Shown: positions 1-19,312 of the stretch, piece after piece
Layout of the letters: the number at the start of each line of letters is the position of its first letter
How positions within the stretch are numbered: the first letter of the stretch is position 1
Origin: Scenedesmus sp. PABB004
Lineage: Eukaryota
Assembly: GCA_014905635.1 (NCBI GenBank)
Contig: JABVCE010000007.1
Location: forward strand, 1,054,001-1,118,000
DNA length: 64,000 nucleotides
Reading direction: 5' to 3'
Notes under the pieces: model-generated
Database searches by the model: none
Told to the model about the DNA's origin: nothing
The model's input: only the letters and a program-made list of their open reading frames with translations
Translations under genes and position numbers: made by a program

Positions 1-3000
1 GAATTTAAAATCGGTGGGCTCTGGACCATACGTCCACTCACGATAGTGGCCAAGGCGCGCGGCGGGCAGGAAGCTGACTGGGCTGACTTTGTCGCGCCGG
101 TACCCAGCCACGTTTGCCCCGTCGCTCCAGGTGGGAAATATTTGGTAGTAATCAGAGATGTTGTACGCAGGAACCATGTAATCGCGGTTTATAGCGTTCC
201 CGTTGGCATCCACGTAGAACCCCTCACAGCCGTATGACCCCGTTCGGGTGTGGGCCATTCGGCCGTTCCCTAGGTCTGCTGCGTCAAGTGTATCAATGCA
301 GCCAAATGGCATAGCCCAAAAAGCCCAGCCTGGGTTGTAATAGGGCTTTGAGTCAACGCCAATGTAGCTGCTGCCATTGGCGTACGTAGAGGCATATGCA
401 GGGCCGGTGTTGTTGTTTTGCGAGGGGGTCACTATGTACGGAGCGTCGTACCGGACCAAAGACGCCCAGCGCGACTGGTTGCGCTTTTTATAACTGCCCC
501 AGTTGTCCCAAGTCTCAATGGACAAAACATCCACTTCCCACGTGGGGCGCAAGCTCTGCCACAGGTCTGCCACCCAAATGATTTGCTCGTCCATTACGTC
601 AGAGTCGTCCAATGATTTGTAGGGAACATAGTCCAACCCATATGGGTTTGATTTGGGTGATTGATCCCAATACTTCGCGTTGTATGTGGCAGAGATGAGC
701 GGATGACCAAGGAAGCTCCTGCAACGAATCAAGTGAGCGTGGCAGGCAGCGTACGTGAATTCCGCACGCGGCAAAGCTATTTTGGCGGCTGAGCTGCGCA
801 AACTCACATGTATGACAGTTTAGGAAGGCCAGTTATCCAAGTTAGCGGTATCGTGCCAAACAATTTGCCATTGCCAGACCAGTCCGTGAAGTCACTGCAT
901 TCGCGTTGCAAACGGAGGCGTGAGGTGAGGTGATTTTCATGGCGCAACGAGCGACCCCCAACCAACCACCCCAACCACGCACATAATCTCCAAGTTGTGC
1001 AGGGTAGACATATTCGTGTCAGGCTGCACTGTGCCCCAGGCAGCCGGCAGGGTTCCATACACAACTGCTGGCCAGCGGTCCGTTGGCGCAACACCAGCGG
1101 CTTGCAAGTGCGCTTTGAACGGAGCATTGCCTTGCTTGAAGAGCTCGTAGGTGCTGGGGTCCCTAAACAATACGCCCATAGACTGCTGAGGGGTGAAGGT
1201 AGAATTGTAGCCCAACGCGGTCAAGTTGAGCAAACCGGGCCACTCGGCAGTGGTACCATTGAACGGCATCACGGCTTGCTCTGATGCACGATCCTTCCAA
1301 CCCCACAGCACGTACCTCCCTGCATTCATGCTTTCAGGTACCATCGATGCATCACGCTCCCACTCCTCGGGCACGTCGGCGTCTTCCCAAACAATTGGAA
1401 ACGACAGGTTTCTTATAATTCTGCGTGCGGCACAGGCGCCGGCGAGCGAGGTGCCGGCGCGCGCACGCCGCCGCCGGCGCGGCGCGCGCTGCGGCTGCAG
1501 CCGCGAGCGGCCGCCTCGCTGGCCAGGCGCCGGCGAGCGAGGTGCCGGCGCGCGCACGCCGCCGCCCGCGCGGCGCGCGCTGCGGCTGCAGCCGCGAGCG
1601 GCCGCCTCGCTGGCCAGGCGCCGGCGAGCGAGGTGCCGGCGCGCGCAGGCCGCCGCCCGCGCGGCGCGCGCTGTGGCTGCAGCCGCGAGTGGCCGCCTCG
1701 CTGTCCAGGCGCCGGCGAGCGAGGTGCCGGCGCGCGCAGGCCGCCGCCCGCGCGGCGCGCGCTGCGGCTGCAGCCGCGAGCGGCCGCCTCGCTGGCCAGG
1801 CGCCGGCGAGCGAGGTGCCGGCGCGCGCACGCCGCCGCCCGCGCGGCGCGCGCTGCGGCTGCAGCCGCGAGCGGCCGCCTCGCTGGCCAGGCGCCGGCGA
1901 GCGAGGTGCCGGCGCGCGCAGGCCGCCGCCCGCGCGGCGCGCGCTGCGGCTGCAGCCGCGAGCGGCCGCTTCGCTGGCCAGGCGCCGGCGAGCGAGGTGC
2001 CGGCGCGCGCACGCCGCCGCCCGCGCGGCGCGCGCTGCGGCTGCAGCGGACGGCTCCTTTTCATTTGGGACCCACCTTATTTGTTTCACCCCTGCCCGCC
2101 ACTTTGTCACGGTAGATGTGCAGTCCTTCATAAACTGGTCATATGCGACAGCATGTTTGACTTGTCCCGGAATATTGAACCATGTGGAGACAGAGGCATT
2201 GGCTGCAAAGTATGTGCCCCAAATACGCTCACAAGGGTTGTCAAAATCGGGCAGGCTCTGTGTGTCACAGTTGGAATTGTTGTCGCCACGGCAGATTGGT
2301 CCAACATGAATGCTTTTGTTGAGATAGCTGGGTGCAGCATAGAATACATCAGCACCGGCACCTTTCTGCATAGCATAGCCAGGAGCCGTATCCCAATCAA
2401 TAATAGTCTCGTTGCCCAACCGATCGTCACTGTGATCAATGAATATGTGGTTGTTGTAGACCCTGGGGTGTTGAGTTCCATCCGTGAGTGCATGTTCGAT
2501 CGCTGCAGCCCAGGCAGCAAGGCGCTGAAATCCCTCCCTCCCCCCACCCACTCACAAGCCGCCGCATTGATGGCAGTTATTATCACATTGTTGGTGCGGA
2601 CGCTTTTTGTCAATGGTTTCTTGCAGCAAGTAGCACCTGTCAAACAGCACGTCAGTCCGAGTTCCAAACAGATGAAAGTACCAGTTCTCTTTTTGGCAAT
2701 TTGTGTGGCCTGTAATGTTACTAGTGATATTGCACTGCACTGTGCGAGGTGTCTTGCTGTAGTTGAAGTACCCGCCGTAGTCCCAGCCTGATGAGTGAAT
2801 AGTGGACTTATCAATCATTGTCCGGCGCCAGTAGTCGTAGTAGACGGGAGGGATAAAACGGTCTTGCAGCGGGTTGGAGAGGTTGGCAGGTGGACGTATG
2901 TAATTCTGTTTGGTCATGGCGCCAATGCAGTTCTCCTCAGTATAGAGGGGCAGAAGCTGCAGCTCATCAGCCAATCGCATGTAGCGTCCCTTGTTACTGC

Positions 3001-6000
3001 TTGGTTGGCTGCACTTGAATGGAAGGCGCGTCATGTTCCATGCGACGTGCACTTGCAGCACCTTGCGCCCGTCAGCGGTTGTGTGCACAGCAGTTGGATC
3101 CCAACCGCCGTGCCAAACGGCTGCTTGTTGAAACTGCACTCGCTTGTCTTCCATGTAAGGGCTGTACTCGCCTCTGTGCCGAAAACGCCAATCTGTGTTG
3201 GCGGTGACGTTGACATACCACTCGCTGTTGTTGCGACCAGCTGCGGGGATTGAACAACGGTGGGAACAGGGGGCAACAGTACCTGTCCGGCAGTTTCCCG
3301 ACCACTCACAACACGCAAGCATTATAGCTGCTCACCCATAAGGTGAATGATGAATGGCGTGTTGTCGTTGGACCATGCACACATGCCCACCTGTTGGTGC
3401 AAGTTTCTATGGGGCAGGGTTGCAGTGGGGCGTTTGTAAGATAGCAGCATATTGCTAACAACTGCTAGATGCCCATCCCCCACTTACAAGTATCTGAGCT
3501 TCGATAGAAGGCCCCAAGAACCAGGGATGCTGCCTTGAAGGCTGCTTGGAGCTGCACGCTCTGCGTAGCCCAGCAATTTGTCCTCCACACCAAAGTCGCT
3601 GCAAGCGGAAGCACGGATGTCACAAGTCTGGCGCGGCCAGCTTGCGTGCGGCAACCGCTTGCGGGCATTGCAGCCGTTTGCGGGGACTTACATTAATTCG
3701 ACGTTGGGGAAAACTTCTGCCCACTCGGGAGGCAGCGTTCCCTGGACAGGAGATAACCATTTGTTGTATGTATTCCAAGGCGTGAAGTCGGTTGCAGGAA
3801 TGTCACTCCTGCTGCTGTAGCCCCTGTCTTCTCCCTGGTACGCTCCACCCATGATGGGGACCTGTGAAGCAGTTGCATTCATCCTGCGCGCAGGCACGGG
3901 TGAGGCAGCGTAAAAGGTTGCAAGTGGAAGATGTACGTCGGCGATGAACATGCGATGGCCGATAGTTCAGCAAGCACAGCTGCTGCAGCCGCGAGCGGCC
4001 GCCTCGCTGGCCAGGCGCCGGCGAGCGAGGTGCCGGCGCGCGCACGCTGCCGCCCGCGCGGCGCGCGCTGCGGCTGCAGCCGCGAGCGGCCGCCTCGCTG
4101 GCCAGGCGCCGGCGAGCGAGGTGCCGGCGCGCGCAGGCCGCCGCCCGCGCGGCGCGCGCTGTGGCTGCAGCCGCGAGCGGCCGCCTCGCTGGCCAGGCGC
4201 CGGCGAGCGAGGTGCCGGCGCGCGCACGCCGCCGCCCGCGCGGCGCGCGCTGCGGCTGCAGCCGCGAGCGGCCGCCTCGCTGGCCAGGCGCCGGCGAGCG
4301 AGGTGCCGGCGCGCGCACGCCGCCGCCCGCGCGGCGCGCGCTGTGGCTGCAGCCGCGAGCGGCCGCCTCGCTGGCCAGGCGCCGGCGAGCGAGGTGCCGG
4401 CGCGCGCACGCCGCCGCCCGCGCGGCGCGCGCTGCGGCTGCAGCCGCGAGCGGCCGCCTCGCTGGCCAGGCGCCGGCGAGCGAGGTGCCGGCGCGCGCAG
4501 GCCGCCGCCCGCGCGGCGCGCGCTGCGGCTGCAGCCGCGAGCGGCCACCTCGCTGGCCAGGCGCCGGCGAGCGAGGTGCCGGCGCGCGCACGCCGCCGCC
4601 CGAGCGGCGCGCGCTGCGGCTGCAGCCGCGAGCGGCCGCCTCGCTGGCCAGGCGCCGGCGAGCGAGGTGCCGGCGCGCGCACGCCGCCGCCCGAGCGGCG
4701 CGCGCTGCGGCTGCAGCCGCGAGCGGCCGCCTCGCTGGCCAGGCGCCGGCGAGCGAGGTGCCGGCGCGCGCACGCCGCCGCCCGCGCGGCGCGCGCTGCG
4801 GCTGCAGCCGCGAGCGGCCGCCTCGCTGGCCAGGCGCCGGCGAGCGAGGTGCCGGCGCGCGCAGGCCGCCGCCCGCGCGGCGCGCGCTGCGGCTGCAGCC
4901 GCGAGCGGCCGCCTCGCTGGCCAGGCGCCGGCGAGCGAGGTGCCGGCGCGCGCACGCCGCCGCCCGCGCGGCGCGCGCTGTGGCTGCAGCCGCGAGCGGC
5001 CGCCTCGCTGGCCAGGCGCCGGCGAGCGAGGTGCCGGCGCGCGCACGCCGCCGCCCGCGCGGCGCGCGCTGCGGCTGCAGCCGCGAGCGGCCGCCTCGCT
5101 GGCCAGGCGCCGGCGAGCGAGGTGCCGGCGCGCGCACGCCGCCGCCCGCGCGGCGCGCGCTGTGGCTGCAGCCGCGAGCGGCCGCCTCGCTGTCCAGGCG
5201 CCGGCGAGCGAGGTGCCGGCGCGCGCAGGCCGCCGCCCGCGCGGCGCGCGCTGCGGCTGCAGCCGCGAGCGGCCGCCTCGCTGGCCAGGCGCCGGCGAGC
5301 GAGGTGCCGGCGCGCGCACGCCGCCGCCCGAGCGGCGCGCGCTGCGGCTGCAGCCGCGAGCGGCCGCCTCGCTGGCCAGGCGCCGGCGAGCGAGGTGCCG
5401 ACGCGCGCACGCCGCCGCCCGAGCGGCGCGCGCTGCGGCTGCAGCCGCGAGCGGCCGCCTCGCTGGCCAGGCGCCGGCGAGCGAGGTGCCAGCGCGCGCA
5501 CGCCGCCGCCCGCGCGGTGCGCGCTGCGGCTGCAGCCGCGAGTGGCCGCCTCGCTGGCCAGGCGCCGGCGAGCGAGGTGCCGGCGCGCGCACGCCGCCGC
5601 CCGAGCGGCGCGCGCTGCGGCTGCAGCCGCGAGTGGCCGCCTCGCTGTCCAGGCGCCGGCGAGCGAGGTGCCGGCGCGCGCACGCCGCCGCCCGAGCGGC
5701 GCGCGCTGCGGCTGCAGCCGCGAGCGGCCGCCTCGCTGGCCAGGCGCCGGCGAGCGAGGTGCCGGCGCGCGCACGCCGCCGCCCGAGCGGCGCGCGCTGC
5801 GGCTGCAGCCGCGAGCGGCCGCCTCGCTGGCCAGGCGCCGGCGAGCGAGGTGCCGACGCGCGCACGCCGCCGCCCGAGCGGCGCGCGCTGCGGCTGCAGC
5901 CGCGAGCGGCCGCCTCGCTGGCCAGGCGCCGGCGAGCGAGGTGCCAGCGCGCGCACGCCGCCGCCCGAGCGGCGCGCGCTGCGGCTGCAGCCGCGAGCGG

Positions 6001-8644
6001 CCGCCTCGCTGGCCAGGCGCCGGCGAGCGAGGTGCCGACGCGCGCACGCCGCCGCCCGAGCGGCGCGCGCTGCGGCTGCAGCCGCGAGCGGCCGCCTCGC
6101 TGGCCAGGCGCCGGCGAGCGAGGTGCCAGCGCGCGCACGCCGCCGCCCGCGGGGTGCGCGCTGCGGCTGGTGCCAGCGCACATGGTTTCACGCACCTGAT
6201 TGTCTTGATACTTTGTCCAAACTTAAGCCGCTTAGACTCGCACAGAGAGTATGGCATTGGTAGTTGTCCAGTAGCAGCTAGCCTTGAACAGGCGTACTTA
6301 AAGTCATTGAGACTCTGCGGCTGTCGACCTAGGAGAGCAGCATAGTCGGTTGCAGATATAATTCCATTTGTTGCCCAATCACGCCGTGTGTCTTGAAAGT
6401 CAACAAACGCAATGTCCGTAAAGCTCCTGTGGCGTGTTTAGTGGTGAGCAACAGTTGAGGTGCACATTTGTGTGCTTAAGCCTAGGTTAAGCAGCACTCA
6501 CAGCTCTTCAAGCTCTTCTAAGAACACCAACTGATCTACAAGCTTGGCAAAAGGCATCGATCCCGGGAACGTGCAGGGAAGTGTGTATGTGTCGTCATAA
6601 CCCTGCCCACTGGTGGTCTGGTCATCCATGCGCTTGTCCACCTGGCCTGGATATCTGAAACAACGGCCCTCCACCTCCCAATGTCTGAGCTTGTTGTCTG
6701 TGGCGTTGCCGTTGGTGGCGTTTGGCGCGTACAGTCCGCGGCCAGTGGACCACAACAGCCCTTCACTGGCACATGGGCTCATACGCCAGCTGTGAGCATG
6801 CCAAGCGTAAGCGTTGCTGGGGAGTGCGTCAGCCCTGCCAAGCTTATCTGTGCGGTGGTAACCCACATCATAATGCCTTATGCGTCTGCGAGCACGGGTG
6901 CGAGGTTCAGGCCTCGCAAGCGCATGATATCAGCTAGGGGCTTCATGCCCCAGCAGGACTCACATGTACGGCACCCGGTCATCCTGCTCTGCATCAACGT
7001 TAGCAGGGGCGCTCCATGTGCGTTCGCTGTCTGGTGTACTCGTGTTGTCTTTCCAACAACTGATCATGGGGCAGGTGGGACAGCCAGGACAAAACTCGCC
7101 ACATGACGGGTATGAGAGCCCTGCAGTTGGCCCAGCGGCAATTGTGGGCAGGCGCAGCAACTGCAAGTGCCAGCCAGCGGCGCCGGCCCACAATTGCCGT
7201 AAGCTCACCATAAACTTCTTTTGGGCTGGAGCTGTTGGTCAGTGTGCCGAGCTGGTCGGTGTCATTATAGCCGTTGTTGAAGTCGTCAAGGCAGCGTGGA
7301 CCTGAACCGGCTCCCATCTCGGGGCTGAAACAACGGAAAGTGAACGGGCACTGCAGATGACGGTTGGCAACCACACTGCAATTGGCAGTTACGTTGTGCA
7401 TGCTGCTGTAGTTGGTGTGGCATGCGATGGTTGTGTCGTTGTTGCTGAGGTGCGTAACATAGAGTGTGAAGTTGCCCCAAACGCGGTAGGTGGTGTTGTA
7501 TTGTTGTGTTTGGTTGAATGGCTGGCTTGCAAAGTAGAAGTTTTTGCTGGCTGAAGCGCCATCTGCACCGTACGTGTCAAAGAATGACGCGGTTTGGGGC
7601 CAAGCTGGTATGCTATAGCTGCCTGCCTCGCGGGTGATTGAAGTAAACTCTGCTCGCTTGCTGCCCATAGCCCAGAACTCGCCAGCAGTGCCGTTGGTGA
7701 TGTTGATCTCCTTGGTCACCAGGTTGGTCGCCCAACCGTCAGTGATGTTGTATTGTAGAATATGACGCGTGGAACCAAGCAACTCCCAAGCAGATGGCCA
7801 TCCAGTTGTGTTGGGCCAGCGAGGCAGCACATTTGCGGAAGGGTTGCTGCCTGACCAGGTCTGCACTTGAGGTTGTGGAGATGTTGGATGCTCACACTCT
7901 GGCACCTGCAGTGTCGGCAATGGCGGCCGTTTTGCGGCAGCACCTCAGGCAAGCCCGCCTAGCTGCAGCTACTGCCCCCGCAGCTGCCGCTGCTGCGCCG
8001 CTGCCACCACCAGCTGCCGCCGCTGCCACCACCAGCTGCCGCTGCTGCCGCTGGCGCCGCTTGCGCAGCGCCGCCTCTGCCGCACTTGGTTAGGGCAGTT
8101 GAATACACAGGGATTGTTGGGCCGCTTGTTGCACCACCAAGTATAGTGCCTGTCAACTTCTGCGCTGCAGTTGCCAATGAGCGGCGCACTGTCGTTGAAT
8201 GCAGTGACGTTCCAGCAGGCCTTGTCATCACGGAACCTGCTGTCAAACTGGTCCAGACCGTAATCGTGCATGTAGACAGCAAATGAGCCAATGGTACGGC
8301 ACACCCGGCTGGCGCGATTGTCTGTCCTTGGGCGCAGCGTGGAGCGATCAGGCAGGGTGCCAGAGCTGTCAACGGCCCCAAAAAAATGCATCAGTGCAAC
8401 ATCTGCGGGAGTGCGGCATCGTCGGCGGGGCGTCAGTCTGCTGACAGCATGCCCATGTGAGCAGAAGATAAAGTGCTGTGAAAATCGCCCTGCGCTCACA
8501 TCTGTAGAGGTGCTCGGTCGGCTGCTGCGCGTCGACTTTTGACATGTACGCACAGGTCACTCCAGGCGCAGAGCAGCACACCAGCGCCCCCAGAAACACG
8601 ATAGCGATGCTCCACGGCCGCAGCCGTGCCTCAGAGGCGCGCAT
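1..8644 (-). CDS. Giant secreted/surface leucine-rich-repeat (plant-type LRR, GP46/receptor-like) protein with very large inserts between LRRs; 3' end outside window (>=1540 aa)
   Basis: Manual splicing gives one open frame over exons 8644-8500, 8402-8086, 7905-7209, 7120-6964, 6885-6502, 6426-6196, 3883-3692, 3598-3488, 3406-3336, 3240-2556, 2462-2076, 1420-983, 894-808, 718-1 (4620 nt; all 13 introns GT-AG). Signal peptide MRASEARLRPWSIAIVFLGALVCCSA. LRR-type motifs GTLPPEW..VELIDF, GSIPGSWGLLSKLRYLNL, GTLPAAW..LEIIDF, GTIPLTW..LPKLSYMSF. Many N-x-S/T sequons and Cys clusters. Confidence 0.8.
1433..2047. repeat. 91-bp GC-rich tandem satellite, ~6.8 copies, in intron 2075-1421 of the LRR gene
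   Basis: CTGCAG recurs at 1495, 1586, 1677, 1768, 1859, 1950, 2041 (period 91). Unit gcggctgcagccgcgagcggccgcctcgctggccaggcgccggcgagcgaggtgccggcgcgcgcacgccgccgcccgcgcggcgcgcgct. Confidence 0.97.
3982..6169. repeat. Same 91-bp satellite, 24 copies, in intron 6195-3884 of the LRR gene
   Basis: CTGCAG from 3983 to 6076 in 91-bp steps (checked at 4438, 5348, 6076). Array bounded by GCTG at 3982-3985 and 6166-6169. Confidence 0.97.
7136..7199. repeat. 14-bp perfect inverted repeat spanning most of an 88-nt intron
   Basis: cggcaattgtgggc (7136-7149) and gcccacaattgccg (7186-7199) inside intron 7208-7121. Confidence 0.8.
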
Positions 8645-9051
8645 CTGGCCTTACGTGGCTGGCATGGCGGGCAGCAAAATTCTCGGGCTGCAGTGCCCGA
8701 TGTTGTGAGACGGCGTGCGCAGGTTCGCCTCTCCGGCGCAGATGTGCGGCTTGGTGGCATGTCGGCGAGGATCGGTGCGGAAACGCCCGTTGCTGCCTTT
8801 GACCGAAACAGTGTCCCTTCGTGGATTCGTGCGACAGCTGTGCGCTCGGCTCTGGCTGCACTCTCTCGACCCGCCCAGCAGCTCGCAGTCGCTTTTCTGA
8901 TGCGTGCGTGCCGGCACGTGACCCCGCTGGCTTGGCGCCGCCAGCCCGCGCATTGCTGCTGCCAGGCTGGCGCCGCGCGCCTGCCCAGGCCCGTGCGGGC
9001 GAGCAGCTCGCTGTGCCGGAGAGCGAGCGGCAGCGCGATGACGAGGATGTG

Positions 9052-12978: not shown

Positions 12979-19312
<6,334 letters not shown>

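Follow-up and report, generated by a model that had tools for sequence, protein, structure and literature searches.

We describe here two arrays of one 91-bp unit in two introns of a single minus-strand gene, within a 64,000-nucleotide stretch of Scenedesmus sp. PABB004 DNA (contig JABVCE010000007.1, positions 1,054,001 to 1,118,000; this whole stretch is called the window below). The unit is an intronic minisatellite whose composition is like that of the host genome (~80% GC) and unlike that of the gene that harbours it (54% GC). The explanation we favour, to which we give about an even chance, is that a host-type minisatellite entered two old introns at equivalent positions, that one array seeded the other locally, and that occasional exchange between them has been combined with separate turnover of each. 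The arrays are most likely a neutral passenger copied between introns, not a proven switch of module number.

The 91-bp unit and the gene that carries it

By using Tandem Repeats Finder (TRF), we found two arrays of period 91, which have the same orientation and share one consensus. Array A lies in intron 11 and array B in intron 6, the exons being numbered from a signal-peptide-like exon 1 (8644-8500).

Array A, 1433-2047: 6.8 copies, 97% matches, no indels (TRF)
Array B, 3982-6169: 24.0 copies, 97% matches, 0% indels (TRF)
Intron 6, 3884..6195, minus strand: 2312 nt, phase 2, Arg codon split as AG/G, GC 0.85, contains array B
Intron 11, 1421..2075, minus strand: 655 nt, phase 2, Arg codon split as AG/A, contains array A

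The unit has a GC content of 87%, and its copies follow one another head to tail (6.8 + 24 copies of period 91), as in a minisatellite. Full units depart from the consensus at 0-4 places in A (6 full units) and at 0-3 places in B (23 full units). As direct repeats of 615 and 2188 bp, 97% alike and spaced by 1934 bp, the two arrays also have the length of several hundred bp and the high identity of a recombination substrate.

We found no further copy of the 91-mer in the other 56 kb of the window, the longest matches being GC-rich and at most 32 bp long. Outside the window, we searched collections that may lack this organism. A 33-mer of the unit gave 0 matches in JGI metagenome contigs and a 23-mer gave 0 in viral contigs, and the four matches of a 23-mer in prokaryote genomes are due to chance, since they are single, span 24-40 bp and fall in GC-rich bacteria. 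Judging by sequence searches of such collections, both the 91-bp unit and the gene family described below appear to be new.

The RNA of the arrays folds no better than shuffled sequence (z-score -0.72) and an Rfam scan of window 1-9000 returned 0 family matches, so we assumed that the arrays have no RNA function. We also considered the arrays as coding sequence and find this idea unlikely, because their frames are open only for lack of stop codons in the repeat and the intron lengths (2312 and 655 nt) are not multiples of 3; in addition, homology within the gene family ends at the donor. The arrays are probably spliced out of the transcript and neutral.

The gene model comprises 14 exons (4656 nt, 1552 codons without a stop) and extends past window position 1. 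Its junctions are GT..AG sites that keep the frame open, to which an upstream exon was added, and splicing is thus predicted from the letters of the DNA.

Exon 1, 8500..8644, minus strand: ATG at 8644, donor GTGAGC, frame continues into exon 2
Exons 2-6, 8402-8086, 7905-7209, 7120-6964, 6885-6502 and 6426-6196, minus strand: short introns, open spliced frame
Exons 7-11, 3883-3692, 3640-3488, 3406-3336, 3240-2637 and 2537-2076, minus strand: 1482 nt = 494 codons
Exons 12-14, 1420-983, 894-808 and 718-1, minus strand: exon 14 continues beyond the window

All 13 introns of the model are bounded by GT..AG, and the 11 introns other than 6 and 11 measure 51-180 nt. The acceptor of intron 7 (3641-3643) reads AAG, which is the sole option that keeps the frame; a CAG 13 nt downstream would break it, and this junction is uncertain because such an acceptor is non-canonical. 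Intron 2 (8085-7906; 180 nt, 74% GC) has a tandem repeat of its own at 7962-8049, with periods of 22 and 30 bp and unrelated to the 91-mer. The N-terminus encoded by exon 1 looks, by eye, like a signal peptide (MRASEARLRPWSIAIVFLGALVCCSAPG...). Exons 2-6 have a GC content of 0.47-0.57.

Exon 6 ends in ...KFGQSIKTI-R and exon 11 in ...KWRAGVKQI-R, the final Arg being split in both cases. Among the 13 introns, introns 6 and 11 are the only ones to split the Arg that follows an 'I'. A preliminary description of this DNA had placed the arrays in the sole two introns that split the Arg of 'IR', and the gene model agrees, the other split Arg (intron 2636-2538) following LFD. It had also put this position one codon later than in the introns between exons with motifs like those of leucine-rich repeats (LRR-like exons), and these introns indeed split I, L or M, one codon before the position used by introns 6 and 11. 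The limits it gave to the whole feature, 1421 and 6195, are the exact last base of intron 11 and first base of intron 6. Finally, it had pointed out that a crossover between the arrays would delete or duplicate exons 7-11 in frame. The arithmetic is right: exons 7-11 amount to 1482 nt and both introns are in phase 2, so that a join of exon 6 to exon 12 is in frame. A switch of module copy number through array crossover may therefore be considered as an arithmetic possibility.

Host introns, array variants and independent strains

The gene has few database relatives. Exon 14 has 4 clear relatives among 1.84 billion representative proteins (63-73% identity) and exon 11 has 5 (37-55% identity), all of them pieces the size of an open reading frame (ORF) out of metagenome assemblies. 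In all five exon 11 relatives, homology ends exactly at ...QIR, two of them stopping there and three running into unrelated tails. The phase-2 intron after ...QIR (2076-2078) is kept in six of six family members (P0006-P0010 and the window gene), and an end right at QIR is expected where read-through of a GTGA donor yields a stop. Two readable tails reach the position at which the satellite starts, those of P0006 (36 aa) and P0009 (21 aa), and neither matches the satellite (best tblastn E of 5.4); the tail of P0007, with 8 aa, is too short to inform. Since the break at QIR is found in six of six members and the tails of P0006 and P0009 lack the satellite, the position of intron 11 is, judging by these relatives, old and the satellite arrived later.

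The relationship between introns 6 and 11 left a fainter trace. When the spliced model was compared to itself by BLASTP, the identity match was the sole one at E<=10. The flanking exons are therefore alike at motif level at most, as the preliminary description had it. A profile of the exon 11 family had a weak second match that lies in exon 6 and pairs QSLNDFKYACSRL with QSLPDFDNPCERI (1.6 bits, conditional E of 0.022), and exons 6 and 11 both terminate in K[FW]xxx[IV]KxIR. When the 60-nt ends of the exons were compared in 66 pairs, exons 7 and 12 ranked 1st, exons 8 and 13 joint 2nd, and exons 6 and 11 11th. The pairing of 7 with 12 and of 8 with 13 means that the order of introns 6/7/8 parallels that of introns 11/12/13, and weakly suggests an old module duplication behind the two sets. 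Introns at equivalent positions in repeated coding modules are iterated introns, and introns 6 and 11 have the same phase, the same exon-end motif and a conserved pair order, which gives weak support to this status. The claim that the two introns are paralogous is thus weakly borne out, through the exon-end ranks, the 1.6-bit profile match and the common K[FW]xxx[IV]KxIR end.

In contrast to the exons, the units of the two arrays are nearly the same sequence, and no fixed difference separates the consensus of A from that of B. We counted 6 variant types in A and 10 in B, of which 4 are common to both (G34, T60, T76 and T90), a sharing that is very improbable by chance over the 273 possible changes (hypergeometric P=1.3e-5). 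G34 and T90 are transversions. Moreover, the shared variants come in shared combinations: the haplotype T76+T90 is present once in A and once in B, in both arrays a unit with T60..T90 precedes one with G34, and the 23-mer with two rare changes that the preliminary description had quoted occurs at exactly two sites, 1687 and 5631. Units diverge to a similar degree between the arrays and within each of them, the mean pairwise distances per 91 nt being 2.35 between A and B, 2.27 within A and 2.11 within B. Together, these data suggest that arrays A and B share one origin.

The arrays are nevertheless not interchangeable. A46 is absent from all seven A units and present in 10 of the 23 B units (one-sided Fisher P=0.04), which argues against frequent exchange, and, within B, the part at low coordinates is closer to A (1.86) than the part at high coordinates (3.11). 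The distribution of A46 and the A-to-B distances suggest that each array has its own turnover. In the donor-side part of B (5286-6169), A25+A46, then A24, then A46 recur in this order, which suggests an expansion in multi-unit blocks.

The borders of the arrays are partly similar. As previously described, both arrays have the same orientation and start close to the donor, 28 nt away in A and 26 nt in B by TRF limits; in a local alignment, B extends as a degenerate part-unit up to 17 nt from the donor. Unique sequence at the 5' side hence measures 28 nt in intron 11 and 17-26 nt in intron 6. In transcript orientation, the unit phase at the start is position 23 in A and 19-27 in B. The 3' limits differ, with 12 nt of unique sequence in intron 11 and 98 nt in intron 6.

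Independent sequence came from freshwater-metagenome runs of one study, X1 (0.44 of words) and X2 (0.23), and from X3, a small-share run; none of them is RNA. The contigs are short and were aligned to 1988-4041, a stretch that leaves out the long arrays. The exons that separate the arrays are represented in contigs of both X1 and X2, with 95-99% identity, and these contigs contain no joint over 1988-4041, a stretch where an array-array join could not show. In one X1 contig (697 nt), 54 nt of satellite are joined to a loose end, and 26 of the first 27 letters of this end agree with the flank of intron 11 next to exon 12. The satellite is therefore present at intron 11 in a diverged strain, where the edge of the array differs from that of the window by part of a unit. 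Another X1 contig ends 4 nt into array B, which hints that this array is present at intron 6 in X1 as well. Two small differences were seen near the junctions: at 3685, X1 and X2 contigs have 9 additional nt (TAAGTCCCC), a duplicate of part of the intron 7 donor region, and X1 lacks 2 nt at 3886, directly before the acceptor of intron 6.

X1 also provided a rate. Compared to the window, it has 14 differences over 1220 exon sites and 16 over 424 intron sites (3.8%). At the intron rate, arrays evolving independently are expected to accumulate 3.4 fixed differences per 91 nt, compared to 0 observed (Poisson P=0.03). This lends modest support either to exchange between the arrays or to constraint on the unit. 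Thus, the gene conversion between introns that the preliminary description had proposed receives moderate support from the lack of fixed differences, the shared variants and X1, while its being frequent is at odds with A46 (0/7 vs 10/23).

Weighing the explanations

In the explanation we favour, a GC-rich minisatellite of host type would have entered pre-existing introns at equivalent positions, each of them coming after a domain that ends in K[FW]xxx[IV]KxIR and before two LRR-like exons. One array would then have seeded the other, 2 kb off, by a non-allelic copy, be it ectopic conversion, template switching or re-insertion of an excised repeat. Occasional non-crossover exchange would keep the arrays similar, while A and B would each expand and contract via their own unequal exchange. 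As a by-product, the direct arrays would be a substrate for non-allelic recombination that deletes or duplicates exons 7-11 in frame.

Several observations weigh against this scenario. Two of the four shared variants, T60 and T76, are CpG transitions and possibly recurrent. The clock argument drawn from X1 requires both arrays to be older than the split of the strains, and X1 directly shows the intron 11 junction alone. Also, the best multi-unit placement of A within B leaves 10 mismatches in 615 nt, so there is no trace of a very recent block copy. Finally, the first 28 nt of introns 6 and 11 rank 43rd of 66 intron pairs in similarity, and since the 5' flanks are unlike, no conversion tract carried them along.

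The unlike flanks and array limits would be easier to understand if A and B were independent arrivals of a genome-wide satellite family that often seeds introns. Such a habit has a precedent, as tandem repeats are dense in the introns of two green algae, mostly near intron ends, according to the available part of a survey (PMC3887541). We nevertheless regard independent arrivals as unlikely, though the least unlikely of the alternatives: both arrays lie within 2 kb, while the remaining 56 kb, with 80% GC, has none, multi-variant haplotypes are common to A and B, the unit phase at the start is nearly equal (23 in A, 19-27 in B), and our searches of JGI metagenome contigs, viral contigs and prokaryote genomes, collections that may lack this organism, did not find the unit. 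At the other extreme, the satellite could have been in the intron already when the module was duplicated, concerted evolution keeping the units identical as the exons diverged. Equivalent intron positions and phases, neighbouring introns in the same order, and similar donor distances and unit phases at the array starts all fit such an ancestral satellite. However, the exons have diverged beyond detection by BLASTP with units still 97% alike, P0006 and P0009 have readable intron starts that lack the satellite, and the unique intron flanks are unlike. Hence, we consider this history improbable.

A functional reading is more doubtful still. The arrays might be under selection as a recombination handle, crossovers toggling the number of modules (LRR-like exons plus domain) in a fast-evolving surface protein. 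The direct repeats of 615 and 2188 bp with 97% identity, the coincidence of the module boundaries with introns 6 and 11, the in-frame product (1482 nt) and a narrow, divergent family with 4 and 5 relatives found would all suit this idea. On the other hand, we saw no deletion or duplication allele in the X1 and X2 contigs, which cover the exons between the arrays in a stretch without the arrays, and the data do not tell selection from mere tolerance. If such a handle were maintained, crossovers would add or remove a module of two LRR-like exons and a large domain in a lineage-restricted secreted glycoprotein, and the locus would be a eukaryotic contingency locus for surface variation, whose handle is preserved by inter-array exchange. 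Such a contingency locus, in a gene that forms a low-GC island in an 80% GC genome, is in our opinion a long shot. Least probable of all, one array could be an artefact of assembly, such as a repeat that was collapsed or put in the wrong place. Assembling such arrays is difficult, and the copy numbers given here are those of the assembly. But an independent X1 contig links the satellite to that flank of intron 11 which adjoins exon 12, a second X1 contig stops at the edge of array B, and A and B carry different variant sets, which makes an artefact very improbable. The entry of a host-type minisatellite into old introns, followed by local seeding, thus remains the explanation we favour.

The host gene and comparison with known systems

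The gene itself is possibly more unusual than its arrays, being intron-rich, of secreted type, almost without relatives and at 54% GC in an 80% GC genome. Its exons have a GC content of 47-58%, with a GC content at third codon positions (GC3) of 0.60 and a CpG observed/expected ratio of 0.71. The remaining window has 71-89% GC and a CpG ratio of 1.19, and GC climbs just upstream of the ATG. The gene thus forms a low-GC island (1-8650) compared to 9000-64000, for which a foreign origin or a region of low recombination are candidate reasons. The neighbouring genes are ordinary eukaryotic ones (class I aldolase, P450 and signal peptide peptidase), and a (GCC)n microsatellite with 156.7 copies and 99% matches lies at window 13254-13721.

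None of nine exon-frame translations scored above threshold in Pfam. The label 'LRR' given to the gene by the preliminary description found no support in Pfam: LRR families in Pfam matched none of these nine translations at E<=1, with each exon carrying at most one repeat, and the LRR-like motifs, namely GxLPxxW (GTLPxxW), GSIPGSW and LxxLxxL (LxxLxx[ILM]), were read by eye. A search with exon 10 against longer proteins gave no match. Likewise, the exon 11 ORF extended into array A had no protein match, in a search where low-complexity repeat words crowded out relatives. Searches with a profile built from exon 14 plus its 4 relatives yielded 70 pattern matches in metagenome contigs and 17 in viral contigs, with 0 confirmed loci in either. 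With 4 relatives found for exon 14 and 5 for exon 11, the gene family appears very narrow and divergent. In the ESM Atlas, the nearest clusters to the exon 14 domain (1-717) are TIM-barrel clusters of alpha-N-acetylglucosaminidase (NAGLU), at 0.90, a recognition below benchmark and without confirmation by Pfam; a NAGLU TIM barrel is a weak lead for this domain. Two AlphaFold models had mean pLDDT values of 30.7 and 51.8, a quality that does not allow a fold search. As a candidate product, we propose a secreted glycoprotein built of modules.

How do the arrays compare to repeats described elsewhere? In Drosophila, according to the available part of the report, short arrays of the complex satellites 1.688 and Rsp-like arise at new loci nearby and expand by unequal exchange within a locus. 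Higher-order repeats move as well, and the routes proposed are microhomology-mediated repair and circular DNA (PMC7403614). The spread and turnover of these small euchromatic arrays resemble what we propose here. Unlike the Drosophila blocks, as far as they are described there, the two arrays of the window are both intronic, lie in one gene at equivalent module positions, and are known from one window. Two green algae have their highest density of tandem repeats in introns, with an excess near intron-exon junctions (PMC3887541). Short motifs dominate that survey, which in its available part describes no long-unit satellite common to paralogous introns (PMC3887541).

In the Argiope MaSp2 and flagelliform spidroin genes, the available text reports iterated introns that are alike over their whole length (mean 97.6%) and exons that are homogenised too, and its authors propose that iterated introns guide unequal crossing over (PMC9779670). 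The locus described here resembles these spidroin genes in that introns at equivalent positions of a modular gene share more sequence than expected. It differs from them as reported, since the inserted satellite alone is common, the intron ends differ and the exons are beyond BLASTP detection. Introns 6 and 11 thus show neither the whole-intron identity nor the homogenised coding repeats of the spidroin type.

Introner elements, found in Micromonas, Aureococcus and others, create new introns and share their whole sequence including the ends. As with introners, most of an intron consists here of repeated DNA, and the host is an aquatic eukaryote rich in GC. We rejected an introner origin, because the intron position is conserved in six of six family members and is not a recent gain, and because the intron ends are unlike, both in their first 28 nt (rank 43/66) and in their 3' flanks (12 and 98 nt).

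Non-allelic homologous recombination between intragenic direct repeats accounts for Alu-mediated exon deletions and for changes in LRR copy number in plant resistance genes. Like those substrates, the arrays are direct repeats whose introns share a phase, which permits the intervening exons to be lost or gained in frame; unlike in those cases, a rearranged allele for exons 7-11 is not among the data. If the arrays exchange without losing the exons in between, they would offer a natural case for the spread of a satellite between nearby introns, and for the extent to which repeats in introns make modular genes liable to lose or gain exons in frame. Set beside these systems, the locus is a clean and well-delimited case of a known process, not a new mechanism.

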